Of a stretch of DNA of 64,000 bases, positions 1 through 64,000 are shown in pieces (positions within the stretch are counted from its first letter, which is position 1; each line of letters starts with the position of its first letter). Both the position numbers and the translations under genes were made by a program. The stretch is from Escherichia coli (GTDB taxonomy: Bacteria > Pseudomonadota > Gammaproteobacteria > Enterobacterales > Enterobacteriaceae): NCBI RefSeq assembly GCF_050320075.1, contig NZ_CP190018.1. One strand, written 5' to 3'. The notes beneath the pieces were generated by a model, which saw only the letters and a program-made list of their open reading frames with translations, searched no databases and was not told the DNA's origin.

Positions 1-68
1 GGTGTTCCTGGATACCCATTAAGAACATATTTTTTCGAATAGTTAATTTATTTTCTCAGGAAGAGATT

Positions 69-5036: not shown

Positions 5037-7839
<2,803 letters not shown>

Positions 7840-30602: not shown

Positions 30603-30603
30603 G

Positions 30604-31317
30604 ATGGAAAAAGTCATGTTGTCCTTTGACAAAGTCAGCGCCCACTACGGCAAAATCCAGGCGCTGCATGAGGTGAGCCTGCATATCAATCAGGGCGAGA
30701 TTGTCACCCTCATTGGCGCGAACGGCGCGGGGAAAACCACCTTGCTCGGCACGTTATGCGGCGACCCACGCGCCACCAGCGGGCGAATTGTGTTTGATGA
30801 TAAAGACATTACCGACTGGCAGACGGCGAAAATCATGCGCGAAGCGGTGGCGATTGTCCCGGAAGGGCGTCGCGTTTTCTCGCGGATGACGGTGGAAGAG
30901 AACCTGGCGATGGGCGGCTTTTTTGCCGAACGCGACCAGTTCCAGGAGCGCATAAAGTGGGTGTATGAACTGTTTCCACGTCTGCATGAGCGCCGTGTTC
31001 AGCGGGCAGGCACCATGTCCGGCGGTGAGCAGCAGATGCTGGCGATTGGTCGCGCGCTGATGAGCAACCCGCGTTTGTTGTTACTTGATGAGCCATCGCT
31101 CGGTCTTGCGCCGATTATCATCCAGCAAATTTTCGACACCATCGAACAACTGCGCGAGCAGGGGATGACTATCTTCCTCGTCGAGCAGAACGCCAACCAG
31201 GCGCTGAAGCTCGCTGATCGCGGCTACGTGCTGGAAAACGGCCATGTTGTGCTCTCCGATACTGGTAATGCGCTGCTGGCGAACGAAGCAGTGAGAAGTG
31301 CGTATTTAGGCGGGTAA
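30604..31317 (+). CDS. livF: Branched-chain amino acid ABC ATPase LivF
   Basis: Start at MEKVMLSFDKV (237 aa); Walker A GANGAGKTT. Confidence 0.9.
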   Translation: MEKVMLSFDKVSAHYGKIQALHEVSLHINQGEIVTLIGANGAGKTTLLGTLCGDPRATSGRIVFDDKDITDWQTAKIMREAVAIVPEGRRVFSRMTVEENLAMGGFFAERDQFQERIKWVYELFPRLHERRVQRAGTMSGGEQQMLAIGRALMSNPRLLLLDEPSLGLAPIIIQQIFDTIEQLREQGMTIFLVEQNANQALKLADRGYVLENGHVVLSDTGNALLANEAVRSAYLGG

Positions 31318-39864: not shown

Positions 39865-39867
39865 GGT

Positions 39868-39900
39868 TAGCGGCCCTCTTCGTGGGAAGAGGGCCGTATT
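39868..39900 (+). terminator. ggt terminator hairpin
   Basis: ggccctcttc gtgg gaagagggcc stem-loop after the ggt stop. Confidence 0.6.
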
Positions 39901-39929
39901 GTCAGGGCAAGCCGGGTAATGACTCCAAC

Positions 39930-40433
39930 TTACTGATAGTGTTTTATGTTCAGATAATGCCCGATGACTTTGTCATGCAGCTCCACCGATTTTGAGAACG
40001 ACAGTGACTTCCGTCCCAGCCTTGCCAGATGTTGTCTCAGATTCAGGTTATGTCGCTCAATGCGCTGAGTGTAACGCTTGCTGATTACGTGCAGCTTTCC
40101 CTTCAGGCGGGATTCATACAGCGGCCAGCCATCCGTCATCCATACCACGACCTCAAAGGCCGACAGCAGGCTCAGAAGACGCTCCAGTGTGGCCAGAGTG
40201 CGTTCACCGAAGACGTGCGCCACAACCGTCCTCCGTATCCTGTCATACGCGTAAAACAGCCAGCGCTGACGTGATTTAGCACCGACGTAGCCCCACTGTT
40301 CGTCCATTTCAGCGCAGACAATCACATCACTGCCCGGCTGTATGCGCGAGGTTACCGACTGCGGCCTGAGTTTTTTAAGTGACGTAAAATCGTGTTGAGG
40401 CCAACGCCCATAATGCGGGCGGTTGCCCGGCAT
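39930..40433 (-). CDS. insB: IS1 transposase InsB (expressed as InsAB' by -1 frameshift)
   Basis: 167-aa ORF, recognised as the IS1 InsB frame from its sequence and position within the element. Confidence 0.9.
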
Positions 40434-40627
40434 CCAACACCATTCATGGCCATATCAATGATTTTCTGGTGTGTACCGGGTTGAGAAGCGGTGTAAGTGA
40501 ACTGCAGTTGCCATGTTTTACGGCAGTGAGAGCAGAGATAGCGCTGATGTCCGGCAGTACTTTTACCGTTACGCACCACGCCTTCAGTAGCTGAGCAGGA
40601 GGGACAACTGATGGAGATGGAAGCCAC
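40352..40627 (-). CDS. insA: IS1 protein InsA
   Basis: 91 aa, Cys-rich zinc-finger N-terminus ([14 protein letters not shown]...CSHCRKTW). Confidence 0.9.
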
Positions 40628-40655
40628 GGGAGCACCTCAAAAACACCATCATACA

Positions 40656-41114
40656 CTAAATCAGTAAGTTGGCACCATTACCGGTATTTGCGATAAGATG
40701 TTGACAGAGGATAAATTCATAACTAACAGTTAATGTTTCTGTATCCAGTTGATTTTCAATGATCTGATGATGAATAGCCGATAAAAAAGCGCCTCTTAGT
40801 TGTATATAATAATACTTTCCCCATCTACCAAATCTATTTATTCGATAGAAGTCAAATTCCATAAATAATTGTTCATTATTGTTAATGGAATTAATAAATA
40901 ATGGAGTGCTTTTATCAATTAATTTACAAAATGTTATACCATGAAACTGTGAACCAAGCCCCGTATTAGTAATACTATTTAAGAATGAGAATGTAAATAT
41001 TTCATCCTCATGCCCGCTCTGCCAGCGATTACCTGTAGACTCAGAAGTCCCACAACCTGCGGAGATGCTTCCTTGTTGTTCTCCCGTTACTGTCAGGTAA
41101 ACAATATTACTCAT
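40656..41114 (-). pseudogene. Hcp-domain gene fragment (yhhZ-like Hcp-effector N-terminus) truncated by IS1; last ~9 codons and the stop lie in the IS1 end
   Basis: 152-aa ORF with Hcp hallmark KLIDKSTPLF; ORF runs into the IS1 terminal repeat (40656-40682). Confidence 0.7.
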
Positions 41115-41349
41115 CCATGAAAAGTCCTTTTATGGCATGCTATTTTATCAATGGCACTATTATGCTTGTTAATTGTTATTTATTTACTCCAGGAAATTGT
41201 AGGCGTATATATTAAAAAATAAAATATTACACTTTAGGACGTAATTATGAGGTAAATCTTATATATTTATTGGGAAAATAAATACATTAAAAGAAGGTAT
41301 GCCGATTTTGAATGACACCCTTTTTCCATCTCAGAAAAAGGGCACTATC

Positions 41350-41838
41350 TTACTTCACCCGCGCCATATAATACGCATCGACATATTCACCATTACGTAA
41401 TGCGTACTTCTTGCCAGTCCCTTCAATCTCAAATCCAAATTTTTTATAGACTTTAATTGCTGGCGCGTTATCGATGAACACCGTTAGCTCAATACGATCT
41501 ACCCGCAACCAGTTGTCGCACATTTCAATCATCTCTCGCATCAGGGCGCTGGCGACGCCGCGATTCTTCCAACGGGAGTCGACACAAATACCAAAATCTG
41601 CAACATGACTGCGGCGTGGGCGCTGTTGCACGTCAATGGTGAGATGGCCCACGACGTCTCCATCAATACAGGCGACGAGTTGCTTGATGCCGGGACGATC
41701 GGCGAGTCGCTCCTGCCACATATGATCGGAAGGATGAGGCACCTGTAGCGTGTTGCAATACACCTCCGGCTGGGCGTGAATCTGCCTGATGGCCTCGTAA
41801 TCGCGCGTTTCAGCATGGCGTATCACTATCTCACTCAT
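41350..41838 (-). CDS. yhhY: GNAT-family N-acetyltransferase YhhY
   Basis: Start at MSEIVIRHAETRDYEAIRQIH (162 aa); acetyl-CoA motif RWKNRGVASALM. Confidence 0.85.
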   Translation of the reverse strand: MSEIVIRHAETRDYEAIRQIHAQPEVYCNTLQVPHPSDHMWQERLADRPGIKQLVACIDGDVVGHLTIDVQQRPRRSHVADFGICVDSRWKNRGVASALMREMIEMCDNWLRVDRIELTVFIDNAPAIKVYKKFGFEIEGTGKKYALRNGEYVDAYYMARVK

Positions 41839-41926
41839 TCCTTTGTCCTCTTTGGGGTAAATGTCCCTTTCAACATCATTGACTTTCAAATGCGAGTCAA
41901 ATGCATTTTTTTTGCAAAAAGTGTTG

Positions 41927-41957
41927 GACAAGTGCGAATGAGAATGATTATTATTGT
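41927..41957 (+). promoter_or_regulatory. Fur box / promoter of ryhB
   Basis: aatgagaatgattattattgtc resembles the Fur consensus gataatgataatcattatc, immediately upstream of RyhB. Confidence 0.6.
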
Positions 41958-41960
41958 CTT

Positions 41961-42050
41961 GCGATCAGGAAGACCCTCGCGGAGAACCTGAAAGCACGAC
42001 ATTGCTCACATTGCTTCCAGTATTACTTAGCCAGCCGGGTGCTGGCTTTT
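41961..42050 (+). ncRNA. ryhB: RyhB small RNA (Fur-repressed iron-sparing sRNA)
   Basis: gcgatcaggaagaccctcgcggagaacctgaaagcacgacattgctcacattgcttccagtattacttagccagccgggtgctggcttttttttt matches RyhB as I recall it, including terminator hairpin and T-run; between yhhY and yhhX as in K-12. Confidence 0.9.
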
Positions 42051-42172
42051 TTTTTGATCTTTCGTTTTCAATTTATCCACGGGAAGTGCTTGTGTTCGTT
42101 ATGCGCACTCCAGTAGGAACCACGTCCGCTTTGCGCTAAGGTGTAAATAATCACCTTAAAAAGGACGAAATC

Positions 42173-43210
42173 ATGGTCATCAACTGCGCCTTTATTGGCT
42201 TCGGCAAAAGCACCACCCGTTACCATCTGCCGTATGTACTTAACCGCAAGGATAGCTGGCATGTCGCGCATATTTTTCGCCGCCATGCGAAGCCGGAAGA
42301 ACAGGCCCCCATTTACTCTCATATCCATTTCACCAGCGATCTCGACGAAGTACTAAACGATCCCGATGTTAAGCTGGTTGTGGTCTGCACCCATGCAGAC
42401 AGCCACTTCGAGTACGCGAAGCGCGCGCTGGAAGCCGGGAAAAATGTGCTGGTCGAAAAACCGTTCACCCCGACGCTTGCCCAGGCGAAGGAGCTGTTTG
42501 CGCTGGCGAAAAGCAAAGGACTGACCGTCACGCCGTATCAGAATCGTCGTTTTGATTCCTGCTTCCTGACAGCGAAAAAAGCGATTGAAAGTGGCAAGTT
42601 GGGAGAGATTGTCGAAGTGGAAAGCCATTTTGACTATTACCGCCCGGTGGCAGAAACCAAACCTGGGCTGCCGCAGGATGGCGCGTTCTATGGTCTTGGT
42701 GTGCATACGATGGACCAGATTATTTCTCTGTTCGGTCGCCCGGATCACGTCGCTTATGACATCCGCAGCCTGCGTAATAAAGCCAATCCTGACGACACCT
42801 TTGAAGCGCAGCTGTTTTATGGCGACCTGAAAGCCATCGTCAAAACCAGCCATCTGGTGAAAATCGATTATCCGAAATTTATCGTTCACGGTAAGAAAGG
42901 TTCGTTTATTAAATACGGTATCGACCAGCAGGAAACCAGCCTCAAGGCTAATATTATGCCGGGCGAACCGGGATTCGCAGCGGATGATTCGGTCGGTGTG
43001 CTGGAGTATGTCAATGACGAGGGTGTGACGGTCAGAGAAGAGATGAAGCCGGAGATGGGCGATTACGGGCGCGTTTATGATGCGTTGTATCAAACCATCA
43101 CCAACGGTGCGCCAAATTACGTCAAGGAATCTGAAGTTCTTACCAATCTGGAAATCCTTGAACGAGGATTTGAGCAAGCCTCTCCCTCCACAGTGACTCT
43201 CGCGAAGTAA
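42173..43210 (+). CDS. yhhX: Gfo/Idh/MocA-family oxidoreductase YhhX
   Basis: 345 aa, N-terminal Rossmann fold. Confidence 0.85.
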   Translation: MVINCAFIGFGKSTTRYHLPYVLNRKDSWHVAHIFRRHAKPEEQAPIYSHIHFTSDLDEVLNDPDVKLVVVCTHADSHFEYAKRALEAGKNVLVEKPFTPTLAQAKELFALAKSKGLTVTPYQNRRFDSCFLTAKKAIESGKLGEIVEVESHFDYYRPVAETKPGLPQDGAFYGLGVHTMDQIISLFGRPDHVAYDIRSLRNKANPDDTFEAQLFYGDLKAIVKTSHLVKIDYPKFIVHGKKGSFIKYGIDQQETSLKANIMPGEPGFAADDSVGVLEYVNDEGVTVREEMKPEMGDYGRVYDALYQTITNGAPNYVKESEVLTNLEILERGFEQASPSTVTLAK

Positions 43211-43332
43211 GTTTGATGGCCCCTCGAATAGTTCAATTTTTTTGAACAGAGGGGTCAATTTTCACCCTCTATCATCCCAGGCGGATCGGGTCCACACTAA
43301 GCCCATCGAAATCATTCAGGGGGCGAATAAAA

Positions 43333-44028
43333 ATGATCTACTTACGCAAAGCAAATGAACGTGGTCATGCAAATCATGGCTGGCTGGACTCCTGGCATAC
43401 TTTCTCTTTTGCCAACTATTACGATCCGAACTTTATGGGCTTCTCCGCGCTGCGCGTGATTAACGACGACGTGATTGAAGCAGGGCAGGGCTTCGGCACT
43501 CACCCGCATAAAGATATGGAAATTTTGACCTACGTGCTGGAAGGTACTGTTGAGCATCAGGACAGCATGGGCAATAAAGAGCAGGTTCCGGCGGGTGAGT
43601 TCCAGATTATGAGTGCGGGTACGGGTATTCGTCACTCAGAGTACAACCCAAGCAGCACCGAGCGTCTGCATCTGTATCAAATCTGGATCATGCCTGAAGA
43701 AAACGGTATTACGCCGCGTTATGAACAGCGTCGCTTCGATGCCGTACAGGGCAAACAGCTGGTGCTCTCGCCGGATGCGCGTGATGGTTCGCTGAAAGTG
43801 TATCAGGATATGGAACTGTACCGCTGGGCGCTGGTAAAAGATGAGCAGTCGGTGCATCAGATTGCCGCTGAACGCCGCGTCTGGATTCAGGTGGTGAAAG
43901 GCAATGTCACCATTAACGGCGTGAAAGCCTCGACCAGCGATGGTCTGGCAATCTGGGATGAGCAGGCAATCTCCATTCATGCGGATAGCGACAGCGAAGT
44001 GTTACTGTTCGATCTGCCGCCGGTTTAA
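43333..44028 (+). CDS. yhhW: Pirin-like cupin (quercetin 2,3-dioxygenase) YhhW
   Basis: 231 aa; cupin His motif GFGTHPHKDMEI. Confidence 0.85.
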   Translation: MIYLRKANERGHANHGWLDSWHTFSFANYYDPNFMGFSALRVINDDVIEAGQGFGTHPHKDMEILTYVLEGTVEHQDSMGNKEQVPAGEFQIMSAGTGIRHSEYNPSSTERLHLYQIWIMPEENGITPRYEQRRFDAVQGKQLVLSPDARDGSLKVYQDMELYRWALVKDEQSVHQIAAERRVWIQVVKGNVTINGVKASTSDGLAIWDEQAISIHADSDSEVLLFDLPPV

Positions 44029-44251
44029 AACTCAACGGCATCTTTGAAGCCTGCCTTTTTGCAGGCTTCCTCACTCGCTCCGGTCGCGTGCTGATGTACG
44101 CTTCCGGGGTTTTGCCGCGTCGTTAGCACAATGCGATGCAATTGATTTAGTGTATATCTAATAATTGTAAACAAGCACTGTTTTCCCCGGGAAGGTTCTG
44201 ATGCGTCCGTGTTAAACTAAGAGAATCTATCTCTTTTGTACCTTCAGGACG

Positions 44252-45247
44252 ATGAAAAAGAAAAGACCCGTACTTCAGGATGTGGCTGACCGTGTAGGCG
44301 TGACCAAAATGACGGTCAGCCGTTTTTTACGCAACCCGGAGCAGGTTTCCGTCGCTCTACGCGGCAAGATTGCCGCCGCTCTTGATGAACTGGGTTATAT
44401 TCCCAATCGCGCGCCCGATATCCTCTCTAATGCCACCAGCCGGGCGATTGGCGTCCTGTTACCTTCTCTCACCAACCAGGTTTTCGCGGAAGTATTACGC
44501 GGAATCGAAAGCGTCACCGACGCGCACGGTTATCAAACTATGCTGGCGCACTACGGTTATAAACCGGAAATGGAGCAAGAACGCCTCGAATCAATGCTCT
44601 CATGGAATATCGATGGACTGATCCTCACCGAACGTACCCACACGCCACGCACCTTAAAGATGATTGAAGTGGCGGGGATTCCGGTGGTGGAGTTGATGGA
44701 CAGCAAGTCGCCGTGCCTCGATATTGCCGTCGGTTTTGATAACTTTGAAGCGGCACGCCAGATGACCACCGCCATTATTGCTCGCGGGCATCGCCACATT
44801 GCCTATCTCGGCGCACGTCTCGACGAACGTACTATCATCAAACAGAAGGGATACGAACAGGCGATGCTGGATGCAGGCCTGGTGCCGTATAGCGTGATGG
44901 TTGAGCAATCTTCTTCTTACTCTTCCGGTATTGAACTGATTCGCCAGGCGAGGCGGGAATATCCGCAGCTGGATGGCGTGTTCTGTACTAATGATGACCT
45001 GGCGGTCGGCGCGGCGTTTGAATGCCAGCGTCTGGGGTTGAAAGTTCCTGACGATATGGCGATTGCCGGTTTCCATGGTCATGACATTGGTCAGGTGATG
45101 GAACCACGGTTGGCGAGCGTACTGACGCCGCGTGAGCGGATGGGCAGTATTGGCGCTGAACGCCTGCTGGCGCGTATTCGTGGCGAATCTGTGACACCGA
45201 AAATGTTAGATTTAGGTTTCACCTTGTCACCGGGCGGATCTATTTAA
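44252..45247 (+). CDS. gntR: Gluconate repressor GntR (LacI family)
   Basis: 331 aa; N-terminal HTH LQDVADRVGVTKMTVSRFL. Confidence 0.9.
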   Translation: MKKKRPVLQDVADRVGVTKMTVSRFLRNPEQVSVALRGKIAAALDELGYIPNRAPDILSNATSRAIGVLLPSLTNQVFAEVLRGIESVTDAHGYQTMLAHYGYKPEMEQERLESMLSWNIDGLILTERTHTPRTLKMIEVAGIPVVELMDSKSPCLDIAVGFDNFEAARQMTTAIIARGHRHIAYLGARLDERTIIKQKGYEQAMLDAGLVPYSVMVEQSSSYSSGIELIRQARREYPQLDGVFCTNDDLAVGAAFECQRLGLKVPDDMAIAGFHGHDIGQVMEPRLASVLTPRERMGSIGAERLLARIRGESVTPKMLDLGFTLSPGGSI

Positions 45248-45326
45248 GCCCACAAATTTGAAGTAGCTCACACTTATACACTTAAGGCACGGATGGATAT
45301 TGCTTCTGATATTGTCCGGCCGGACA

Positions 45327-45355
45327 ATGTTACCGATAACAGTTACCCGTAACAT
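45327..45355 (+). promoter_or_regulatory. GntR operator(s) in gntK promoter
   Basis: atgttaccgataacagttacccgtaacat contains ATGTTACC...GTAACAT half-sites typical of GntR operators; preceded by perfect palindrome attgtccggccggacaat (45311-45328). Confidence 0.6.
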
Positions 45356-45385
45356 TTTTATTTCTTGTATTGTGGGGGCACCACT

Positions 45386-45913
45386 TTGAGCACGACTAAC
45401 CATGATCACCACATTTACGTCTTGATGGGCGTATCGGGCAGCGGCAAATCTGCGGTCGCCAGTGAAGTGGCGCATCAACTTCATGCCGCGTTTCTTGATG
45501 GCGATTTCCTCCATCCAAGGCGCAATATCGAAAAAATGGCGTCTGGTGAACCGCTGAATGACGACGATCGCAAACCGTGGTTGCAGGCGCTGAACGACGC
45601 CGCGTTTGCTATGCAGCGCACCAATAAAGTGTCGCTGATCGTCTGTTCTGCACTGAAAAAACACTATCGCGACTTGCTGCGTGAAGGTAATCCGAATCTC
45701 TCGTTCATCTACCTGAAAGGCGATTTTGATGTGATTGAAAGCCGCCTGAAAGCGCGCAAAGGCCATTTCTTTAAAACCCAAATGTTGGTGACGCAGTTTG
45801 AAACGCTGCAGGAGCCGGGTGCGGACGAAACCGATGTACTGGTGGTGGATATCGATCAACCGCTGGAAGGTGTTGTGGCAAGCACCATTGAGGTTATTAA
45901 AAAAGGCAAATAA
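45386..45913 (+). CDS. gntK: Gluconokinase GntK (TTG start)
   Basis: Begins (L/M)STTNHDHHIYVLMGVSGSGKS (175 aa); P-loop. Confidence 0.85.
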   Translation: MSTTNHDHHIYVLMGVSGSGKSAVASEVAHQLHAAFLDGDFLHPRRNIEKMASGEPLNDDDRKPWLQALNDAAFAMQRTNKVSLIVCSALKKHYRDLLREGNPNLSFIYLKGDFDVIESRLKARKGHFFKTQMLVTQFETLQEPGADETDVLVVDIDQPLEGVVASTIEVIKKGK

Positions 45914-45916
45914 GTA

Positions 45917-47257
45917 GTGACTACATTAACGCTTGTTTTAACAGCAGTAGGGTCTGTTTTACTGCTGCTGTTTTTAGTCATGAAGGCGCGTATGCACGCT
46001 TTCCTGGCTTTGATGGTGGTGTCCATGGGGGCTGGCCTTTTTTCCGGTATGCCGCTCGATAAAATCGCAGCGACGATGGAAAAAGGGATGGGAGGCACCC
46101 TCGGCTTCCTGGCGGTGGTTGTCGCCCTGGGAGCTATGTTTGGCAAGATCTTACATGAAACCGGCGCAGTCGATCAGATTGCCGTCAAAATGCTCAAATC
46201 CTTCGGTCACAGCCGCGCGCATTATGCCATCGGCCTTGCGGGGCTGGTCTGTGCGCTACCGCTGTTCTTTGAAGTGGCGATTGTTCTGCTGATTAGCGTT
46301 GCTTTCTCAATGGCGCGCCACACCGGTACGAACCTGGTGAAGCTGGTAATCCCATTATTCGCAGGCGTGGCGGCCGCGGCTGCGTTCCTGGTGCCTGGAC
46401 CAGCGCCAATGCTGCTGGCATCGCAGATGAATGCCGACTTTGGCTGGATGATCCTGATTGGCCTGTGTGCGGCAATTCCGGGAATGATTATTGCCGGGCC
46501 GCTGTGGGGTAATTTCATCAGCCGCTACGTGGAGCTGCATATTCCTGACGACATCAGCGAACCACATCTCGGCGAAGGCAAAATGCCATCTTTCGGATTC
46601 AGCCTGTCGCTGATCCTGTTGCCGCTGGTGCTGGTAGGGCTGAAAACCATTGCCGCGCGTTTTGTGCCAGAAGGCTCTACCGCTTACGAATGGTTCGAGT
46701 TTATTGGTCATCCGTTTACCGCGATTCTGGTTGCTTGTCTGGTGGCGATTTATGGCCTGGCAATGCGTCAGGGCATGCCAAAAGACAAAGTGATGGAGAT
46801 TTGCGGTCACGCGCTGCAACCGGCGGGGATCATTCTGCTGGTGATTGGTGCAGGCGGCGTGTTCAAACAGGTGCTGGTTGACTCTGGCGTAGGTCCGGCA
46901 CTGGGCGAAGCGTTAACCGGCATGGGCCTGCCGATTGCCATCACCTGCTTCGTGCTGGCAGCTGCAGTGCGCATCATTCAGGGTTCTGCCACCGTTGCCT
47001 GTTTAACGGCGGTGGGACTGGTGATGCCGGTTATTGAACAACTGAACTACTCCGGTGCGCAAATGGCGGCGCTGTCGATTTGTATCGCCGGTGGTTCGAT
47101 TGTTGTCAGCCACGTTAACGACGCCGGTTTCTGGTTGTTCGGTAAATTTACCGGCGCGACCGAAGCCGAAACGCTGAAAACCTGGACCATGATGGAAACC
47201 ATACTCGGCACTGTTGGTGCCATCGTTGGGATGATTGCGTTCCAGCTGTTGAGTTAA
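45917..47257 (+). CDS. gntU: Low-affinity gluconate transporter GntU (GntP family)
   Basis: 446-aa polytopic membrane protein. Confidence 0.9.
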   Translation: MTTLTLVLTAVGSVLLLLFLVMKARMHAFLALMVVSMGAGLFSGMPLDKIAATMEKGMGGTLGFLAVVVALGAMFGKILHETGAVDQIAVKMLKSFGHSRAHYAIGLAGLVCALPLFFEVAIVLLISVAFSMARHTGTNLVKLVIPLFAGVAAAAAFLVPGPAPMLLASQMNADFGWMILIGLCAAIPGMIIAGPLWGNFISRYVELHIPDDISEPHLGEGKMPSFGFSLSLILLPLVLVGLKTIAARFVPEGSTAYEWFEFIGHPFTAILVACLVAIYGLAMRQGMPKDKVMEICGHALQPAGIILLVIGAGGVFKQVLVDSGVGPALGEALTGMGLPIAITCFVLAAAVRIIQGSATVACLTAVGLVMPVIEQLNYSGAQMAALSICIAGGSIVVSHVNDAGFWLFGKFTGATEAETLKTWTMMETILGTVGAIVGMIAFQLLS

Positions 47258-47271
47258 TTACTGCGACAAAT

Positions 47272-47299
47272 TACTGCGAGCTTGCTCGCAGTAATTCAT
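47272..47299 (+). terminator. Palindromic hairpin downstream of gntU (probable terminator)
   Basis: Perfect inverted repeat aattactgcgagc tt gctcgcagtaatt; no strong T-run. Confidence 0.45.
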
Positions 47300-47396
47300 T
47301 TCTCTTATCTCCTCTCTTCATCTTTTTGATCTCTCTCGCAAATTTACCTGCTAATAATCCGTTCTAATCACTGCCTAAAGATCGCAGGAGATAAAG

Positions 47397-49493
47397 ATGG
47401 AAAAGCACGGAGCTGAATTGCTTTTACAGCGGATGTTAGGAAATACCACCGCTACTTTCAGGGAAGGGCAATGGGAAGCCATAGATGCAGTGGTTAATCA
47501 GCGGCGAAAACTGCTGGTTGTACAGCGCACCGGCTGGGGGAAAAGTGCCGTGTACTTCATCGCCAGTAAAATCTTCCGCGATCGCGGCGCTGGCCCGACA
47601 ATTATCATCTCTCCTTTGCTTGCCCTGATGCGTAACCAGGTTGCCGCCGCTGAACGGTTAGGTATTACGGCTGAAACGTTGAATTCTACAAACAGGGAAG
47701 AATGGCAGCGCATTAGCGATAAGTTGCTGCAAGGTGAGGTCGATTGCTTGCTGGTTTCCCCGGAACGTTTGGCAAACCAGGACTTTATCGAAACGGTTTT
47801 ATATCCTATAGCCGATCGTATTGGCTTGCTTGTGGTCGACGAGGCGCACTGCATCTCTGATTGGGGCCACGATTTTCGCCCGGATTACCGACGTATATTA
47901 GATATTTTGCGCCAACTGCCTGCGAATACCCCTGTTCTGGGTACAACCGCGACAGCGAATAACCGTGTTGTTGAGGATATCCGTCAGCAATTGGGTGACA
48001 TTGTGATTCAGCGTGGAACGCTGGCTCGCGAAAGTTTGGCGCTTGATGCCTTAGTCTTAGGAGAACAGTCATCCCGTCTGGCATGGTTAGCAACGGTTAT
48101 CCCTCAGTTTTCCAAATCGGGAATTGTTTATACCCTGACGACTCGCGATGCTGAACTTGTCGCCGAGTGGTTAAGGAAAAATGGTATCAGTGCATTTGCT
48201 TACTACAGCGGCGTGACTTGTGAAGGCGCGGAAGATTCTAATACTGCCAGGGAATATCTGGAGCAGGCACTGCTGGCAAATAAAATCAAAGTGCTGGTCG
48301 CGACGACGGCATTAGGTATGGGGTTTGATAAACCTGATTTAGGTTTCGTCATTCATTATCAGATGCCGGGGTCTATTGTCGGTTACTACCAACAGGTGGG
48401 GCGTGCCGGGCGTGCTATAGATTCCGCAGTTGGCATATTGCTTTGTGGTGGTGAAGACCGCGCTATTCATCAATTCTTCCGTGAAAGCGCCTTTCCTGCG
48501 GAGGCGCAAATTCATGAAATACTCAACGTACTTAGCGAGAATGACGGTCTTACCCTACGAGGCATTGAACAACGGACGAATCTTCGTTATGGGCAAATAG
48601 AAAAAGCACTGAAATTATTGGTAGCGGAAAATCCATCGCCTGTGGTGTATACCGAGAAATTATGGCGCAGAACTATCGTCAGTTTTTCTCCTGATCATGA
48701 ACGAATTAACCATTTGATGAATCAGAGAAAAAGTGAACTGGCAGACGTTGAAAGCTATATCACGACCAAGGAGTGCAAAATGCAATTTCTGCGCCGTGCA
48801 CTCGATGAGCCAAGTGCCGAACGTTGTGGTAAATGTAGCAGTTGTCTTCAGCATCCGTTATTGTCGCCCGACATTGATAGCGGCTTACTCCATGCGGCAA
48901 ATTTATTTATTAAACACGCTGACCTGCCGTTAAATCTCAATAAACAGGTGGCAGCTGGGGCTTTTACGCAATACGGATTTAAAGGGAACTTGCCTGCGGG
49001 TTTACAAGGATCTACGGGGCGAATCCTTTCTCGTTGGGGAGATTCCGGGTGGGGAAAGCAGGTAGCACAGGAGAAAAAAACGGGGCGCTTAAGTGATGAG
49101 CTGGTAGAAGCATGTGCGGAAATGGTTCGCCAACGCTGGAATCCGCATCCTGAACCAACCTGGGTATGCTGCGTTCCTTCATTAAGGCACCTCGACCTGG
49201 TTCCTGATTTTGCCCGGCGACTGGCGGCGAAACTTGGCTTACCTTTTATTGATGCCATTGAAAAAGTCGTGGACAATCCACCGCAGAAAATGCAGCAAAA
49301 CCGTTTTCACCAGTGTCAAAATCTCGACGGGGCGTTTGTGATTACCCCTCCTTTGATGCCAGGTCCGGCGTTGCTGGTTGACGATATCGTGGATTCTGCA
49401 TGGACGCTGACAGTTCTGACAGCACTGTTACGCCAGGCAGGTTGCCCGACGGTTTATCCTCTTGCCCTTGCTTCTACCTCGGTAAAAAATTGA
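47397..49493 (+). CDS. RecQ-family superfamily-2 helicase fused to a C-terminal ComF-type phosphoribosyltransferase-like domain (PsyrT/RqlH-like candidate toxin)
   Basis: 698 aa. RecQ motifs: FREGQWEAIDAV, Walker A TGWGKS, DEAH box VVDEAHCISDWGHDFRPDY, YYQQVGRAGR, Zn-binding CKMQFLRR...CGKCSSC. C-terminus: QNRFHQCQNLDGAF...ALLVDDIVDSAWTLT matching ComF/PRTase PRPP-loop pattern. Good RBS aggag 8 bp upstream. Confidence 0.8.
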   Translation: MEKHGAELLLQRMLGNTTATFREGQWEAIDAVVNQRRKLLVVQRTGWGKSAVYFIASKIFRDRGAGPTIIISPLLALMRNQVAAAERLGITAETLNSTNREEWQRISDKLLQGEVDCLLVSPERLANQDFIETVLYPIADRIGLLVVDEAHCISDWGHDFRPDYRRILDILRQLPANTPVLGTTATANNRVVEDIRQQLGDIVIQRGTLARESLALDALVLGEQSSRLAWLATVIPQFSKSGIVYTLTTRDAELVAEWLRKNGISAFAYYSGVTCEGAEDSNTAREYLEQALLANKIKVLVATTALGMGFDKPDLGFVIHYQMPGSIVGYYQQVGRAGRAIDSAVGILLCGGEDRAIHQFFRESAFPAEAQIHEILNVLSENDGLTLRGIEQRTNLRYGQIEKALKLLVAENPSPVVYTEKLWRRTIVSFSPDHERINHLMNQRKSELADVESYITTKECKMQFLRRALDEPSAERCGKCSSCLQHPLLSPDIDSGLLHAANLFIKHADLPLNLNKQVAAGAFTQYGFKGNLPAGLQGSTGRILSRWGDSGWGKQVAQEKKTGRLSDELVEACAEMVRQRWNPHPEPTWVCCVPSLRHLDLVPDFARRLAAKLGLPFIDAIEKVVDNPPQKMQQNRFHQCQNLDGAFVITPPLMPGPALLVDDIVDSAWTLTVLTALLRQAGCPTVYPLALASTSVKN

Positions 49494-50695
49494 TGAATCT
49501 TTCAGCCAATGCACAAGCGACTCTCCTGCTAACCAGCGATTTTTCTCGCGCGGCGGCGAGTGAGTATAAACCTCTTAGTAATAGTGAATGGGGGAAGTTT
49601 GCATTATGGCTGAAGCACCAACGTATCAGTCCCGCCGATCTTCTGGTGCCGCAACCGCAAGAGAAACTTACAGGCTGGAGCGATCCGCGTATTTCTCAGG
49701 AGCGTATTCTTGGCTTGCTGGCGCGTGGTCATAGTCTGGCGTTGGCGGTAGATAAGTGGCAACGCGCCGGTTTATGGATCTTAACCCGCGGAGATGCCGA
49801 TTATCCCGTTCGCTTGAAAAACCGATTGCGAACGGATGCACCTCCCGTTTTATTTGGCTGCGGGAATAAAGCATTACTGCAAGCGGAAGGTATGGCGATT
49901 GTTGGCTCGCGAGATGCTCCGACTGCCGATTTGCGCTATACCCAACAACTGGCAGCGAAACTGGCCCAACAGGGGATTTGCGTTATCTCTGGTGGTGCGC
50001 GAGGTATTGATGAATGTGCAATAGCGTCGGCGCTGGAGGCCGGAGGAACTGCCGTTGGCGTATTAGCTGATAGCTTGTTAAAAACGAGCACGTTAGTGAA
50101 ATGGCGTGAAGGGCTTATAGCAGGCAACCTGGTGTTGATTTCACCGTTTTACCCAGAGGTACGTTTCACCGTCGGCAATGCGATGGCGCGGAATAAATAT
50201 ATTTATTGCCTTGCTGAAAGCGCAATGGTTGTACGTGCGGGAATGACCGGTGGAACGATAACCGGAGCGATGGAGGCGTTAAAACATCAGTGGCTGCCTG
50301 TTCTGGTTAAACCAAATCAGGATGTGCAATCAGCCAATTCACGATTAGTAGAAAATGGGGCGTCATGGAGTGCTGAACAGGCTGAGAATGTGACGATCAG
50401 ACTGCCAGACGTTCCTGGGCTGATGTATGACAGAGCACTCCGTAACGCTCAACCAGAATTGTTTTCGCTGCACGAAGATGACGCAAATTACGCAGTGATG
50501 CCCTCGCATACCCCTGTCGATTTTTATCAACTTTTTGTGGCGGAACTGGCGATCCTTGCAAAGGAATCGATAAGTATTGAAAGGCTGGCGTCTTGTACTG
50601 GTTTAACCATCGAACAAATTAGTATGTGGCTGAACCGCGCAGAAGAAGAGGGAAGGGTTATCCGATTGGGCGAAGGTCATTATCAGTTCAGGTAA
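49493..50695 (+). CDS. DprA (Smf)-like Rossmann-fold protein with C-terminal winged-helix (PsyrA/RqlI-like candidate antitoxin)
   Basis: 400 aa from the ATG overlapping the upstream stop (TGATG). DprA motifs: IVGSRDAP...ICVISGGARGIDECAIASALEAGGTAVGVLADSL...NAMARNKYIY...VVRAGMTGGT. Confidence 0.75.
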   Translation: MNLSANAQATLLLTSDFSRAAASEYKPLSNSEWGKFALWLKHQRISPADLLVPQPQEKLTGWSDPRISQERILGLLARGHSLALAVDKWQRAGLWILTRGDADYPVRLKNRLRTDAPPVLFGCGNKALLQAEGMAIVGSRDAPTADLRYTQQLAAKLAQQGICVISGGARGIDECAIASALEAGGTAVGVLADSLLKTSTLVKWREGLIAGNLVLISPFYPEVRFTVGNAMARNKYIYCLAESAMVVRAGMTGGTITGAMEALKHQWLPVLVKPNQDVQSANSRLVENGASWSAEQAENVTIRLPDVPGLMYDRALRNAQPELFSLHEDDANYAVMPSHTPVDFYQLFVAELAILAKESISIERLASCTGLTIEQISMWLNRAEEEGRVIRLGEGHYQFR

Positions 50696-50699
50696 TAAA

Positions 50700-50733
50700 A
50701 CAGGTGCCGCCTCTGGTTGTGTGCAGCACCTGT
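50700..50733. terminator. Hairpin between the DprA-like gene and yhgN (convergent), probable yhgN terminator
   Basis: acaggtgccgc...gcagcacctgt stem-loop; on the minus strand followed by a T/A-rich run. Confidence 0.5.
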
Positions 50734-50740
50734 TTGAACC

Positions 50741-51334
50741 TTACCCCTTCATCCACATTCGAATGCCGTCGAGGAACATCTGGGTTGCCATCATCACCAG
50801 AATCAATCCCATCAGGCGTTCAAGTGCGTTCACCCCTTTCTCGCCCAGCAGACGTAAAAATAGCGAAGACTGTAGCAGGATGACAAAGGTGCCACCCCAG
50901 GCCAGCAGCAGAGCAATTACCAAATGTCCCATCTGATTCGGGTACTGATGAGACAACAACATCAGCGTGGCGAGAATAGTCGGCCCGGCGACTAACGGAA
51001 TTGCCAACGGCACGATAAACGGCTCTTCACCTGCCGGAAGCCCGCTGCTATTTCCTGAAGCACTGGGGAAAATCATCTTAATGGCGATCAGAAACAGAAT
51101 GATGCCGCCAGAAATGGAGACGGTTTCTGCCCGCAGGCTAAGAAATGCCAGAATTTTCTCACCCGCAAACAGGAACACCAGCATCACCAGGAGAGCAATA
51201 AGCAACTCTCGCACCATGATTGCCCGCCGTCTTTTCGGTTCAGTATGTTTCAGTACGGACATGAAAATAGGTAGGTTTCCGAGCGGATCCATAATCAGGA
51301 TCAATAAAACTGCTGCAGAAATGATTTCATTCAT
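50741..51334 (-). CDS. yhgN: MarC-family membrane protein YhgN
   Basis: 197-aa membrane protein; divergent from asd as in K-12. Confidence 0.85.
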   Translation of the reverse strand: MNEIISAAVLLILIMDPLGNLPIFMSVLKHTEPKRRRAIMVRELLIALLVMLVFLFAGEKILAFLSLRAETVSISGGIILFLIAIKMIFPSASGNSSGLPAGEEPFIVPLAIPLVAGPTILATLMLLSHQYPNQMGHLVIALLLAWGGTFVILLQSSLFLRLLGEKGVNALERLMGLILVMMATQMFLDGIRMWMKG

Positions 51335-51525
51335 AACTCAAATTCCCTGATAATTGCCGCGGACTTTCTGCGTGCTAACAAAGCAGGATAAGTCGCATTA
51401 CTGATGGCTTCGCTATCATTGATTAATTTCACTTGCGACTTTGGCTGCTTTTTGTATGGTGAAAGATGTGCCAAGAGGAGACCGGCACATTTATACAGCA
51501 CACATCTTTGCAGGAAAAAACGCTT

Positions 51526-52629
51526 ATGAAAAATGTTGGTTTTATCGGCTGGCGCGGTATGGTCGGCTCCGTTCTCATGCAACGCATGGTTGAAGAGCGC
51601 GACTTCGACGCCATTCGCCCTGTCTTCTTTTCTACTTCTCAGCTTGGTCAGGCTGCGCCGTCTTTTGGCGGAACCACTGGCACACTTCAGGATGCCTTTG
51701 ATCTGGAGGCGCTAAAGGCCCTCGATATCATTGTGACCTGTCAGGGCGGCGATTATACCAACGAAATCTATCCAAAGCTTCGTGAAAGCGGATGGCAAGG
51801 TTACTGGATTGACGCAGCATCGTCTCTGCGCATGAAAGATGACGCCATCATCATTCTTGACCCCGTCAATCAGGACGTCATTACCGACGGATTAAATAAT
51901 GGCATCAGGACTTTTGTTGGCGGTAACTGTACCGTAAGCCTGATGTTGATGTCGTTGGGTGGTTTATTCGCCAATGATCTTGTTGATTGGGTGTCCGTTG
52001 CAACCTACCAGGCCGCTTCCGGCGGTGGTGCGCGACATATGCGTGAGTTATTAACCCAGATGGGCCATCTGTATAGCCATGTGGCAGATGAACTCGCGAC
52101 CCCGTCCTCTGCTATTCTCGATATCGAACGCAAAGTCACAACCTTAACCCGTAGCGGTGAGCTGCCGGTGGATAACTTTGGCGTGCCGCTGGCGGGTAGC
52201 CTGATTCCGTGGATCGACAAACAGCTTGATAACGGTCAGAGCCGCGAAGAGTGGAAAGGGCAGGCGGAAACCAACAAGATCCTCAACACATCTTCCGTAA
52301 TTCCGGTAGATGGTTTATGTGTGCGTGTCGGGGCATTGCGCTGCCACAGCCAGGCATTCACTATTAAATTGAAAAAAGATGTGTCTATTCCGACCGTGGA
52401 AGAACTGCTGGCTGCGCACAATCCGTGGGCGAAAGTCGTTCCGAACGATCGGGAAATCACTATGCGTGAGCTAACCCCAGCTGCCGTTACCGGCACGCTG
52501 ACCACGCCGGTAGGCCGCCTGCGTAAGCTGAATATGGGACCAGAGTTCCTGTCAGCCTTTACCGTGGGCGACCAGCTGCTGTGGGGGGCCGCGGAGCCGC
52601 TGCGTCGGATGCTTCGTCAACTGGCGTAA
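51526..52629 (+). CDS. asd: Aspartate-semialdehyde dehydrogenase
   Basis: Start at [17 protein letters not shown] (367 aa); active-site region GGNCTVS. Confidence 0.95.
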
Positions 52630-52901
52630 TCTTTATTCATTAAATCTGGGGCGCGATGCCGCCCCTGCTAGTGCGTAATACAGGAGTAAGCGCAGATGTT
52701 TCATGATTTACCGGGAGTTAAATAGAGCATTGGCTATTCTTTAAGGGTGGCTGAATACATGAGTATTCACAGCCTTACCTGAAGTGAGGACGACGCAGAG
52801 AGGATGCACAGAGTGCTGCGCCGTTCAGGTCAAAAAAATGTCACAACCAGAAGTCAAAAATCCAGTTGGATGGGGTGACACAATAAAACAGGAAGACAAG
52901 C

Positions 52902-55088
52902 ATGTCCGATCGTATCGATAGAGACGTGATTAACGCGCTAATTGCAGGCCATTTTGCGGATCCTTTTTCCGTACTGGGGATGCATAAAACCACCGCGGGA
53001 CTGGAAGTCCGTGCCCTTTTACCCGACGCTACCGATGTGTGGGTGATTGAACCGAAAACCGGGCGCAAACTCGCAAAACTGGAGTGTCTCGACTCCCGTG
53101 GATTCTTTAGCGGTGTCATTCCGCGACGTAAGAATTTTTTCCGCTATCAGTTGGCTGTTGTCTGGCATGGTCAGCAAAACCTGATAGATGATCCTTACCG
53201 TTTTGGTCCGCTAATCCAGGAAATGGATGCCTGGCTATTATCTGAAGGTACTCACCTGCGCCCGTATGAAACCTTAGGCGCGCATGCAGATACTATGGAT
53301 GGCGTCACAGGTACGCGTTTTTCTGTCTGGGCTCCAAACGCCCGTCGGGTCTCGGTGGTTGGGCAATTCAACTACTGGGACGGTCGCCGTCATCCGATGC
53401 GCCTGCGTAAAGAGAGCGGCATCTGGGAACTGTTTATCCCTGGGGCGCATAACGGTCAGCTCTATAAATATGAGATGATTGATGCCAATGGCAACTTGCG
53501 TCTGAAGTCCGACCCTTATGCCTTCGAAGCGCAAATGCGCCCGGAAACCGCGTCTCTTATTTGCGGTCTGCCGGAAAAGGTTGTGCAGACTGAAGAGCGC
53601 AAAAAAGCGAATCAGTTTGATGCGCCAATCTCTATTTATGAAGTTCACCTGGGCTCCTGGCGTCGCCACACCGACAACAATTTCTGGTTGAGCTACCGCG
53701 AGCTGGCCGATCAACTGGTGCCTTATGCTAAATGGATGGGCTTTACCCACCTCGAACTGCTGCCCATTAACGAGCATCCCTTCGATGGCAGTTGGGGTTA
53801 TCAGCCAACCGGCCTGTATGCACCGACCCGCCGTTTTGGTACTCGCGACGACTTCCGTTATTTCATTGATGCCGCACACGCAGCTGGTCTGAACGTGATT
53901 CTCGACTGGGTGCCAGGCCACTTCCCGACCGATGACTTTGCGCTTGCCGAATTTGATGGCACGAACTTGTATGAACACAGCGATCCGCGCGAAGGCTATC
54001 ATCAGGACTGGAATACGCTGATCTACAACTATGGTCGCCGTGAAGTCAGTAACTTCCTTGTCGGTAACGCGCTTTACTGGATTGAACGTTTTGGTATTGA
54101 TGCGCTGCGCGTCGATGCGGTGGCGTCAATGATTTATCGCGACTACAGCCGTAAAGAGGGGGAGTGGATCCCGAACGAATTTGGCGGGCGCGAGAATCTT
54201 GAAGCGATTGAATTCTTGCGTAATACCAACCGTATTCTTGGTGAGCAGGTTTCCGGTGCGGTGACAATGGCGGAGGAGTCTACCGATTTCCCTGGCGTTT
54301 CTCGTCCGCAGGACATGGGCGGTCTGGGCTTCTGGTACAAGTGGAACCTGGGATGGATGCATGACACCCTGGACTACATGAAGCTCGACCCGGTTTATCG
54401 TCAGTATCATCACGATAAACTGACCTTCGGGATGCTCTACAACTACACTGAAAACTTCGTCCTGCCGTTGTCGCATGATGAAGTGGTCCACGGTAAAAAA
54501 TCGATTCTCGACCGGATGCCGGGCGACGCATGGCAGAAATTCGCTAACCTGCGCGCCTACTACGGCTGGATGTGGGCATTCCCGGGCAAGAAACTGCTGT
54601 TCATGGGGAACGAATTTGCCCAGGGCCGCGAGTGGAACCATGACGCCAGCCTCGACTGGCATCTGTTGGAAGGCGGCGATAACTGGCACCACGGTGTCCA
54701 GCGTCTGGTGCGCGATCTGAACCTCACCTACCGCCACCATAAAGCAATGCATGAACTGGATTTTGACCCGTACGGCTTTGAATGGCTGGTGGTGGATGAC
54801 AAAGAACGCTCGGTGCTGATCTTTGTGCGTCGCGATAAAGAGGGTAACGAAATCATCGTTGCCAGTAACTTTACTCCGGTGCCGCGTCATGATTATCGCT
54901 TCGGCATTAACCAGCCGGGCAAATGGCGTGAAATCCTTAATACCGATTCCATGCACTATCACGGCAGTAATGTCGGCAATGGCGGCACGGTACACAGCGA
55001 TGAGATTGCCAGCCACGGTCGTCAGCATTCATTAAGCCTGACACTACCACCGCTGGCCACTATTTGGCTGGTTCGGGAGGCAGAATGA
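52902..55088 (+). CDS. glgB: 1,4-alpha-glucan branching enzyme GlgB
   Basis: 728 aa; GH13 motifs. Confidence 0.95.
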
Positions 55089-57058
55089 CACAACTCGCCA
55101 TTGGCAAACCCGCACCCCTCGGCGCGCATTACGACGGTCAGGGCGTCAACTTCACACTTTTCTCCGCTCATGCCGAGCGGGTAGAACTGTGTATCTTTGA
55201 CGCCAATGGCCAGGAACATCGCTATGACTTGCCAGGGCACAGTGGCGACATTTGGCACGGTTATCTGCCGGATGCGCGTCCGGGTTTGCGTTATGGTTAT
55301 CGCGTTCATGGCCCCTGGCAACCCGCCGAGGGGCATCGCTTTAACCCGGCGAAGTTGTTGATTGATCCTTGCGCGCGGCAAATTGACGGGGAATTTAAAG
55401 ATAACCCGCTGCTGCACGCCGGTCATAATGAACCTGACTATCGCGACAACGCCGCCATTGCGCCGAAATGCGTAGTGGTGGTTGATCACTATGACTGGGA
55501 AGATGATGCCCCGCCGCGCACGCCGTGGGGCAGCACCATCATTTATGAAGCCCATGTCAAAGGATTAACGTACCTGCATCCGGAGATCCCGGTCGAGATC
55601 CGTGGCACTTATAAAGCCCTGGGGCATCCGGTGATGATCAACTATTTGAAACAGTTGGGCATTACCGCGCTGGAACTGCTGCCGGTGGCGCAGTTTGCCA
55701 GCGAACCACGCCTGCAACGTATGGGTCTAAGTAACTACTGGGGTTATAACCCGGTGGCGATGTTTGCGCTGCATCCGGCGTATGCCTGCTCCCCAGAAAC
55801 GGCGCTGGATGAGTTTCGCGATGCAATCAAAGCACTGCATAAAGCGGGTATCGAAGTCATTCTTGATATCGTGCTCAACCATAGTGCGGAACTGGACCTC
55901 GACGGTCCGTTATTCTCTCTGCGTGGGATCGACAACCGTAGCTATTATTGGATAAGAGAAGACGGCGATTATCACAACTGGACCGGTTGTGGCAACACGC
56001 TCAATTTGAGTCATCCGGCGGTAGTGGATTATGCCAGCGCTTGCCTGCGTTATTGGGTAGAAACCTGCCACGTCGATGGTTTCCGCTTTGATCTGGCGGC
56101 AGTCATGGGCCGTACGCCAGAGTTCCGTCAGGATGCGCCGTTGTTTACCGCTATCCAGAACTGCCCGGTGCTCTCGCAGGTGAAGTTAATTGCTGAACCG
56201 TGGGATATTGCTCCTGGTGGTTATCAGGTGGGAAATTTCCCGCCGCTGTTTGCCGAGTGGAACGATCATTTCCGCGATGCTGCCCGTCGTTTCTGGCTTC
56301 ATTATGATTTGCCTCTGGGGGCGTTTGCCGGGCGTTTTGCTGCCTCCAGCGATGTTTTTAAACGTAATGGTCGTCTGCCGAGTGCCGCGATTAATCTCGT
56401 CACCGCGCATGACGGTTTTACGCTTCGCGACTGCGTTTGCTTCAACCATAAACATAATGAAGCAAACGGAGAAGAAAATCGCGACGGGACCAACAACAAT
56501 TATAGTAACAATCATGGTAAAGAAGGGTTAGGCGGTACTCTTGACCTGGTTGAACGGCGTCGCGACAGCATTCACGCCCTGTTAACAACGTTGTTGCTCT
56601 CCCAGGGTACGCCGATGTTACTGGCCGGTGACGAACATGGTCACAGCCAGCATGGCAATAACAATGCCTACTGTCAGGATAACCAATTAACCTGGTTGGA
56701 CTGGTCGCAGGCAAGCAGTGGTTTAACCGCATTTACCGCCGCGTTAATCCATCTGCGCAAGCGCATTCCCGCTTTGGTGGAGAATCGCTGGTGGGAAGAA
56801 GGCGACGGCAATGTCCGTTGGCTAAATCGATATGCTCAACCTTTAAGCACGGATGAGTGGCAAAACGGGCCGAAACAGCTGCAAATTCTGCTCTCGGATC
56901 GCTTTTTGATCGCAATTAACGCCACGCTTGAGGTAACAGAGATTGTTTTACCTGCTGGGGAGTGGCACGCCATTCCCCCATTCGCTGGAGAGGATAACCC
57001 AGTGATTACGGCTGTCTGGCAGGGACCTGCACACGGATTGTGTGTGTTCCAGAGATGA
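55085..57058 (+). CDS. glgX: Glycogen debranching enzyme GlgX
   Basis: Start at [20 protein letters not shown] (657 aa); overlaps glgB stop. Confidence 0.95.
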
Positions 57059-59804: not shown

Positions 59805-62270
<2,466 letters not shown>

Positions 62271-62285
62271 GTTCGCTAAAAAACA

Positions 62286-62313
62286 GAACGGGGCCAAAAG
62301 GTCCCGTTTTTTT
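62286..62313 (+). terminator. glgP rho-independent terminator
   Basis: aacggggcc aaaa ggtcccgtt hairpin followed by tttttttt. Confidence 0.75.
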
Positions 62314-62386
62314 TCGCCTTTATTTAGGAAAAGTGTCCAGAGGGGGCGAGGGTTATCGGGGAGTATAATTTCGCCATTCAGCAAGA

Positions 62387-63904: not shown

Positions 63905-63929
63905 CGCTCGAGAGAAAGGAATCAGCGCA

Positions 63930-64000
63930 ATGAATAAATTCACCTGTGTTTTACTATTAGGTACGGCGCTACTGGCGGGATGTGTCGACCGGGAAGGGTA
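63930..64000 (+). CDS. 5' end of a lipoprotein gene (partial, runs off the window)
   Basis: atgaataaattcacctgtgttttactattaggtacggcgctactggcgggatgtgtc encodes MNKFTCVLLLGTALLAGCV with lipobox LLAGC; only 23 codons visible. Confidence 0.3.
   Translation, partial: MNKFTCVLLLGTALLAGCVDREG

Follow-up and report, generated by a model that had tools for sequence, protein, structure and literature searches.

The gntU-yhgN spacer of an Escherichia coli chromosome carries the rqlH-rqlI (PsyrTA) toxin-antitoxin operon: a proposed phosphoribosyltransferase-toxin model and an apparently old allelic origin

What lies between the convergent genes gntU and yhgN in some Escherichia coli chromosomes, and how did it come to be there? 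The question is raised by a 64,000-nucleotide stretch of E. coli DNA (the window; NCBI RefSeq assembly GCF_050320075.1, contig NZ_CP190018.1), in which gntU ends at 47257 and yhgN, on the minus strand, ends at 50741. The accessory segment between the two stop codons (47258-50740, plus strand, 3,483 bp) is filled by two plus-strand open reading frames, 47397-49493 (698 amino acids) and 49493-50695 (400 amino acids), which are rqlH and rqlI, also named psyrT and psyrA. Taken together, the segment is very probably the chromosomal rqlH-rqlI operon of E. coli, i.e., the PsyrTA toxin-antitoxin and anti-phage system, for which a model based on a phosphoribosyltransferase (PRTase) toxin and an origin as an old allele are proposed here.

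Alignment with K-12 MG1655 confirmed that the extra two-gene segment, first noticed in an earlier reading of the letters alone (the sequence-only reading), is real and missing from that strain. Similarity ends exactly at the gntU stop and at the yhgN stop, and in MG1655 these stop codons are separated by a spacer of 56 bp, not the roughly 100 bp given in that reading. The same reading had suspected a defence-type operon absent from K-12, and a PADLOC run indeed identified it as PsyrTA (RqlHI). RefSeq uses more general names for the two genes in strain CFSAN061763, which is 100% identical to the window, calling them "RecQ family ATP-dependent DNA helicase" and "DNA-processing protein DprA".

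The product of rqlH, the toxin gene (47397-49493, plus strand), is a RecQ-like superfamily 2 (SF2) helicase with a winged helix, a RecQ zinc finger and a C-terminal, ComF-like type I PRTase. The PADLOC PsyrT profile matched it end to end at 1064 bits (residues 3-697 on profile positions 5-687 of 689), and Pfam recognized the DEAD, Helicase_C, RecQ_Zn_bind and Pribosyltran domains. The helicase motifs GWGKS (residues 46-50, including K49) and DEAH (148-151), the zinc-finger cysteines 460, 477, 480 and 483, and the phosphoribosyl pyrophosphate (PRPP) loop VDDIVDS (residues 661-667, nucleotides 49377-49397) were located in the sequence; the catalytic residues K49, D148 and DIVD663 are intact and bear the same numbers as the residues mutated in a published study (PMC4670107). 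A plain sequence search of the PDB with the C-terminal half returned nothing, the PRTase being seen only by profile and fold searches. PF00156, the PRTase family, is weak in the window protein and reached E<=1e-3 in 45 of 81 family members, and a family profile of the C-terminal half matched the PRPP-loop region of PRPP synthetases and PRTases. For the AlphaFold model of residues 354-698 (predicted local distance difference test score, pLDDT, 92.5), the best fold match was Helicobacter pylori ComF (7p0h), followed by APRT, OPRT and HGXPRT, with ShosT (8zvd) at rank 27. PADLOC, Pfam, profile and fold thus agree on a single polypeptide that joins a RecQ-like SF2 helicase to a C-terminal PRTase, the architecture that characterizes the PsyrTA toxin.

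Two other identities were tried for RqlH and rejected. As a housekeeping RecQ it fell short of the TIGR01389 equivalog cut-off (296 bits versus 640), although it passed the RecQ-family subfamily model (252.8 versus 219.8 bits). As DpdF, of the Dpd system of 7-deazaguanine DNA modification, it scored 149 bits against an NCBIfam cut-off of 550; moreover, the PADLOC DpdF matches were limited to the helicase core, and the neighbours are gntU and yhgN, not dpd genes.

The antitoxin gene rqlI (49493-50695, plus strand) encodes a protein with a DprA/SLOG Rossmann domain at about residues 89-292 and a weak C-terminal helix-turn-helix match. The PADLOC PsyrA profile matched at 663 bits (residues 2-401 on positions 1-397 of 398), Pfam returned DNA_processg_A (PF02481, 1.5e-49) and SLOG (PF18306), and distant matches were found to DprA and ShosA structures, including PDB 9vzo. 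The protein is not the housekeeping DprA, since it scored 101.8 bits against the TIGR00732 equivalog cut-off of 191.15. Its ATG overlaps the rqlH stop in the sequence TGATG, and rqlI is translationally coupled to rqlH. RefSeq places the rqlI start at 49400, which gives 431 amino acids and a 94-nucleotide overlap with rqlH; because the TGATG overlap yields 400 amino acids and both the PsyrA profile and the literature on strain F11 fit 49493, this call appears over-extended by 31 codons, and the true ATG is probably that at 49493. Thus, a DprA-like/SLOG gene lies immediately downstream of the toxin gene on the same strand, as PADLOC, Pfam and the overlap all indicate. This arrangement is also the rule among the matches listed (80 related loci), where, of the 77 loci with room for it, 75 have a PsyrA homologue directly 3' of the toxin and co-oriented with it, and the loci with this order span many phyla. 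In Defluviicoccus vanus (locus L073) and in one other locus (L052), the rqlH frame continues 0.7 to 1.3 kb beyond the match, which may reflect an RqlH-RqlI fusion or an additional domain.

The locus as such is already known, since the system was published in 2015 and 2022 and its position in 2023; this applies to the gene pair, its toxin-antitoxin behaviour, its defence class and its place between gntU and yhgN. In the extraintestinal pathogenic E. coli strain F11, RqlH alone induced the SOS response and filamentation and lowered viability, and this toxicity was dependent on the PRTase domain, including the PRPP pocket (DIVD663, D663A); RqlI rescued RqlH-expressing cells and co-immunoprecipitated with RqlH (Russell & Mulvey 2015, PMC4670107). 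The same study reported that the two genes are co-transcribed and that MG1655 has neither. The F11 pair (rqlI being EcF11_3933) is from the same species as the window pair and forms the same two-gene operon, with the same numbering of K49, D148 and DIVD663 and with RqlI spanning residues 1-400 in both. Relative to the window, the allele of a sequence type 131 (ST131) strain, of phylogroup B2, has 11 nonsynonymous changes in rqlH and about 10 in rqlI; overall, the window allele is about 3% divergent in DNA from the B2 and O157 alleles, with no functional difference evident. Toxicity and its neutralization are experimentally established for the F11 orthologue and would be predicted of the window allele. 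PsyrTA, described by Sberro in 2013 and Millman in 2022 and modelled in PADLOC and DefenseFinder, likewise shows no architectural difference from the window pair: both components are full-length matches in the same order, on the same strand and with the same overlap. PsyrTA (= RqlHI) is among the toxin-antitoxin systems that give phage resistance (Millman et al., 10.1101/2022.05.11.491447), the anti-phage activity having been reported for other homologues. As for position, the S3 table of Hochhauser et al. 2023 (PMC10121019) contains the entry "gntU-yhgN ... PsyrTA", of about 3.49 kb and 2 genes, with mobile-element type "None" and ATCC 25922 as the example; under the hotspot definition of that study, islands of three or fewer genes were scored as empty. 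The rqlHI pair is, therefore, a correct but ordinary finding of an accessory defence-type locus, and only the evidence for an old presence/absence polymorphism shared between genera, considered further below, is modestly new.

How might the pair act? In the F11 orthologue the PRTase is the toxic part and the antitoxin RqlI acts by direct interaction (PMC4670107). A guide is offered by the related system ShosTA, which shares with RqlHI a PRPP-binding PRTase toxin, a DprA-like antitoxin, DNA damage and filamentation. The ShosTA toxin must bind PRPP to be toxic, upsets purine metabolism and leads to DNA damage; the DprA-like antitoxin binds single-stranded DNA and RecA, the trigger being host shut-off or phage DNA (PMC11961720, PMC12961424). 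By analogy, infection or another DNA stress would remove or titrate RqlI, either through single-stranded DNA or recombination intermediates or through shut-off of antitoxin synthesis, and the freed RqlH PRTase would then disturb nucleotide or DNA metabolism and arrest the infected cell. What sets the toxin free, what chemistry its PRTase performs and whether the E. coli allele protects against phage are matters of inference; for the chemistry, Russell & Mulvey raised the possibility that DNA or nucleotides are modified with PRPP at sites opened by the helicase (PMC4670107). The two systems are nonetheless distinct. ShosT has no RecQ helicase whereas RqlH has one, and ShosA neutralizes ShosT without binding it (type IV) whereas RqlI co-immunoprecipitates with its toxin. 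An identification of the window pair as ShosTA was rejected on the RecQ core of RqlH and on the scores of the ShosA models against RqlI (92.6 and 30.8 bits, versus 663 for PsyrA). RqlH of Mycobacterium smegmatis also combines a RecQ-like helicase with a C-terminal PRTase, and the helicase-dead mutations in F11 RqlH were taken over from it; it has no RqlI partner, as is typical of Gram-positives, whereas the window RqlH does (PMC3378886).

Two lines of evidence favour continued function and a defence role. With the ST131 strain as the comparison, dN/dS (the ratio of nonsynonymous to synonymous divergence) was 0.07 for rqlH and 0.18 for rqlI; both genes are intact and, by these ratios, under purifying selection. 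In addition, a more distant PsyrT/PsyrA pair, whose toxin is 60.6% identical to the window RqlH, was found on an E. coli IncFIA/FIC conjugative plasmid (NZ_OX030731.1, 1694-11773), where it lies within a type I restriction-modification operon in the order hsdM-hsdS-psyrT-psyrA-hsdR. This embedding supports a defence role for the PsyrTA family.

Several points weigh against the proposed anti-phage model. The phenotypes reported for RqlI were in gut colonization and low-oxygen growth, not in phage resistance (PMC4670107). In the B2 isolate NILS69, infection by the ten infecting phages was unaltered when PsyrTA was deleted, and K-12 cells expressing the system were not protected and showed a growth defect (10.1101/2024.12.20.629700). 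Neither experiment showed protection, and an anti-phage effect of the E. coli allele is thus undemonstrated. The trigger proposed by analogy with ShosTA may not transfer, given that ShosA does not bind its toxin and RqlI does. The PDB holds no PsyrT or PsyrA structure and no substrate of the PRTase is known, and a sigma-70 consensus scan upstream of rqlH found no plus-strand promoter.

These observations bear directly on the rival account that survives best, namely that rqlHI is mainly a selfish or physiological toxin-antitoxin or DNA-metabolism module that contributes nothing meaningful to phage defence in E. coli, persisting by addiction or by modulating replication and repair in gut colonization and low-oxygen growth. 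We consider it unlikely overall, though more probable than the other rivals. Deletion of rqlI produced RqlH-dependent phenotypes in the SOS response, in growth and in gut persistence (PMC4670107), and the native-host deletion in NILS69 had no phage phenotype. The decayed alleles of the locus also fit it. In O157:H7 strain ECP19-798, rqlH is a pseudogene with a 1-bp deletion (at the equivalent of window position 47912) that creates a stop at codon 202, and 29 bp of its PRTase region (equivalent of 49183) are duplicated in tandem, while rqlI is intact; the 3,511-bp form of the segment seen in ECP19-798 recurs in many O157 genomes. In the clinical isolate NRZ94505 (contig 1-6586), rqlH is interrupted by an ISEcp1-blaCTX-M-15 unit accompanied by fragments of Tn3 and IS26, leaving a C-terminal fragment annotated as 'ComF family protein' and an intact rqlI. 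Shigella sonnei encodes truncated forms of RqlH. In all three cases the toxin was inactivated and the antitoxin retained, a pattern that in O157:H7 fits toxin-antitoxin logic. Against this account stand the phage defence reported for PsyrTA homologues (10.1101/2022.05.11.491447) and the family member inside the plasmid restriction-modification operon. Furthermore, the low dN/dS of the toxin argues for selection on active RqlH, for which pure addiction at a fixed chromosomal location is not an obvious explanation, and the native-host result covers only 10 infecting phages. The PRTase-toxin defence model is retained as the preferred reading of function.

We then asked how the operon came to occupy this site. 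The sequence-only reading had pictured an insertion into an intergenic hotspot, somewhat lower in GC than its neighbours and free of integrase, tRNA and direct repeats, hence neither a prophage nor an integrative and conjugative element. The compositional part was correct: the segment has 49.4% GC against 53.0% for the window, and GC at third codon positions (GC3) is 0.46 in its genes against 0.57-0.63 in gntR, gntK, gntU, yhgN and asd. The structural part was also upheld by tRNA, repeat and gene checks, in that no tRNA was found at 40000-56000, no direct or inverted repeat at the segment boundaries and no integrase; in addition, no Rfam family reached its gathering threshold at 44000-53000. 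Neither 'insertion', in the sense of a recent event, nor 'hotspot' withstood the comparisons that follow.

Occupancy was surveyed in 5,426 complete E. coli genomes, 5,424 of which have the flanks. The insert sequence was present in 1,650 (30%), with at least 80% coverage in 1,641; 304 genomes carry the window allele at >=99% identity, and in 1,346 the identity to it is 95-99%. Every copy was chromosomal and plasmids carried none; genomes had one place in the median and never more than two. The remaining genomes sampled all had an empty configuration of 767-774 bp, and contig look-ups with the exact YhgN protein likewise revealed two states only, empty or rqlHI (intact or decayed). No alternative cargo at the site was seen in the survey or the look-ups, contrary to the idea of a hotspot. 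With K-12 empty and occupancy at 30%, neither K-12 nor the majority of E. coli carries these genes, as their presumed accessory status demands.

Within E. coli, the synonymous divergence (dS) between the window and the ST131 strain was 0.10 for rqlH and 0.06 for rqlI, compared with 0.11 for gntU and 0.06 for yhgN. Since these values are equal for the pair and its flanks, the pair has diverged in step with them inside the species. The next-closest RqlH sequences, retrieved through the protein database and contig look-ups, were 68-74% identical; they belong to Citrobacter freundii, to Silvania hatchlandensis and to three enterobacterial contigs from metagenomes, of which one is near C. freundii. 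Most of these occupied enterobacterial loci share the order yhhW-gntR-gntK-gntU, then rqlH-rqlI, then yhgN-asd-glgB, and their flanking proteins share 90-98% identity with the E. coli ones. A junction hairpin with the core CTGCGAG-N4-CTCGCAG is found in all occupied enterobacterial alleles, with compensatory changes in its outer stem, and is absent from the empty alleles and from the 80 non-enterobacterial PsyrTA loci among the matches listed. An empty allele also occurs in Citrobacter, in genomes whose YhgN is the same protein; it is 56 bp long with a CCCGGT...ACCGGG hairpin as in K-12. The low GC3 of rqlHI is kept in every enterobacterial genus with an occupied allele, so that composition is no sign of recent arrival. 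Because diverged orthologues occupy the same junction and Citrobacter has the homologous empty allele, the event at gntU-yhgN would be an old one, whether gain or loss. The simplest reading of these comparisons is that rqlHI and the empty spacer are two old alleles of gntU-yhgN, common to other Enterobacteriaceae.

How old these alleles may be is a separate matter. No convincing similarity was detected between the K-12 spacer and either end of the insert, i.e., no remnants of the other allele, so that a simple indel would not turn one allele into the other. The 400-bp flanks contained 78 sites that group by species and 0 that group by allele, so that an old polymorphism is neither favoured nor disfavoured by hitch-hiking. 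Between genera, dS of both rqlH and rqlI is saturated and gives no date for the alleles, and the correlation of core and RqlH distances (Pearson 0.79, Spearman 0.11) rests on one close pair and carries no information. It is suggested only tentatively, as somewhat less probable than its opposite, that the occupied form and the 56-bp empty form predate the split of Escherichia and Citrobacter and have persisted side by side, as a presence/absence polymorphism, in several enterobacterial genera. If true, a costly and genotoxic helicase-PRTase module would have been under balancing selection over the long term, without any part played by a mobile element. In any event, rqlHI makes a clean case of a defence or toxin-antitoxin module free of any mobile element, and it appears to last as a pair of old alleles at one fixed site in several enterobacterial genera.

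The competing account of origin holds that the segment is a recent defence islet, placed in an E. coli integration hotspot by an unrecognized mobile element or by illegitimate recombination. It would explain the absence of the segment from K-12 and about 70% of complete genomes and the GC3 of 0.46 against about 0.6 in the flanks. It would also fit the relatives outside the gntU-linked enterobacterial alleles, the closest of which, among the matches listed, are only 64-66% identical and belong to assorted gammaproteobacteria; in the contig scan the relatives listed were at most 65% identical and none was enterobacterial. Nonetheless, this account is improbable, as it is at odds with the equality of dS with the flanks, with the same junction and hairpin in Citrobacter, Silvania and two other lineages whose RqlH is only 67-75% identical, and with the low GC3 in all occupied genera alongside the homologous Citrobacter empty allele. 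No copy was found elsewhere or on plasmids in the 5,426 genomes, and a mobile genomic island was rejected for lack of an integrase or transposase, a tRNA or att site, flanking direct repeats and variable cargo. Old alleles thus remain the favoured explanation of the locus.

Just as improbable is a DNA-uptake or single-stranded DNA-processing machine akin to ComFA, ComFC and DprA that acts on incoming DNA: the parallel, already drawn by Russell & Mulvey (PMC4670107), is apparent in the shared helicase, ComF-type PRTase fold (7p0h being the best structural match of the C-terminal half) and DprA-type Rossmann/SLOG protein, and in the RefSeq ComF name on the truncated fragment, but in RqlH the helicase is fused to the PRTase and is of the RecQ type, not the DEAD-box ComFA type, RqlI is below the DprA equivalog cut-off while these strains have a canonical DprA besides (PMC4670107), no further competence genes or competence context accompany rqlHI, and the genotoxicity of RqlH alone with rescue by RqlI is toxin-antitoxin behaviour (PMC4670107).

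The segment is bracketed by two hairpins. The left one (47269-47296) is terminator-like and lies directly 3' of gntU; it has a perfect 13-bp stem around the conserved core (arms 47269-47281 and 47284-47296; -16.6 kcal/mol, z = -4.4). The sequence-only reading had recognized this gntU palindrome but placed it at 47272-47299, three positions too far. The right hairpin, which that reading had taken as the yhgN terminator at 50700-50733, was substantiated there by its folding energy and z-scores (arms 50700-50707 and 50726-50733; -21.7 kcal/mol and z = -3.7 on the plus strand, -25.4 kcal/mol and z = -5.3 on the minus strand); it is common to the convergent 3' ends of rqlI and yhgN, and a U-run follows it on the minus strand. 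Each hairpin folded better than all of its dinucleotide-shuffled counterparts. Next to the left hairpin is a pyrimidine-rich tract (47297-47345, plus strand; 82% C+T), a candidate promoter or operator region. Such a tract had been proposed for 47300-47396; it is real but shorter, as C+T over the whole of 47297-47396 is only 64%. Inside it, the sequence TTTTTGATCTCTCTCGCAA at 47323-47341 is conserved across genera, and a TTTTTGATyTCT block is conserved in all occupied enterobacterial alleles. The ribosome-binding site of rqlH, as read from the sequence, is AGGAG at 47386-47390 (plus strand), 6 nucleotides before the ATG.

Some minor observations were made on relatives of the locus and on the rest of the window. 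No full-length homologue of the rqlHI proteins was found in phage genomes. On one metagenome contig (L117, 8294-11451), AIM24, hypothetical, metallophosphatase and DUF4440 genes lie between rqlI and yhgN, and on another (L115, 8303-8660) yhgN is missing or degraded. In the window itself, an RHS element core protein gene (1-3643, minus strand) is cut by the window start, and a gene for a tetratricopeptide-repeat protein (30245-30991, plus strand) lies between livF and ugpB. A TssD/Hcp-like gene, long at 392 amino acids, is followed by yrhA at 39445-41114 (minus strand), beside yrhB and a yrhD fragment, and is the only type VI secretion gene annotated in the window. Finally, two tandem PstS-family genes are located 3' of glgP (61101-64000, plus strand).

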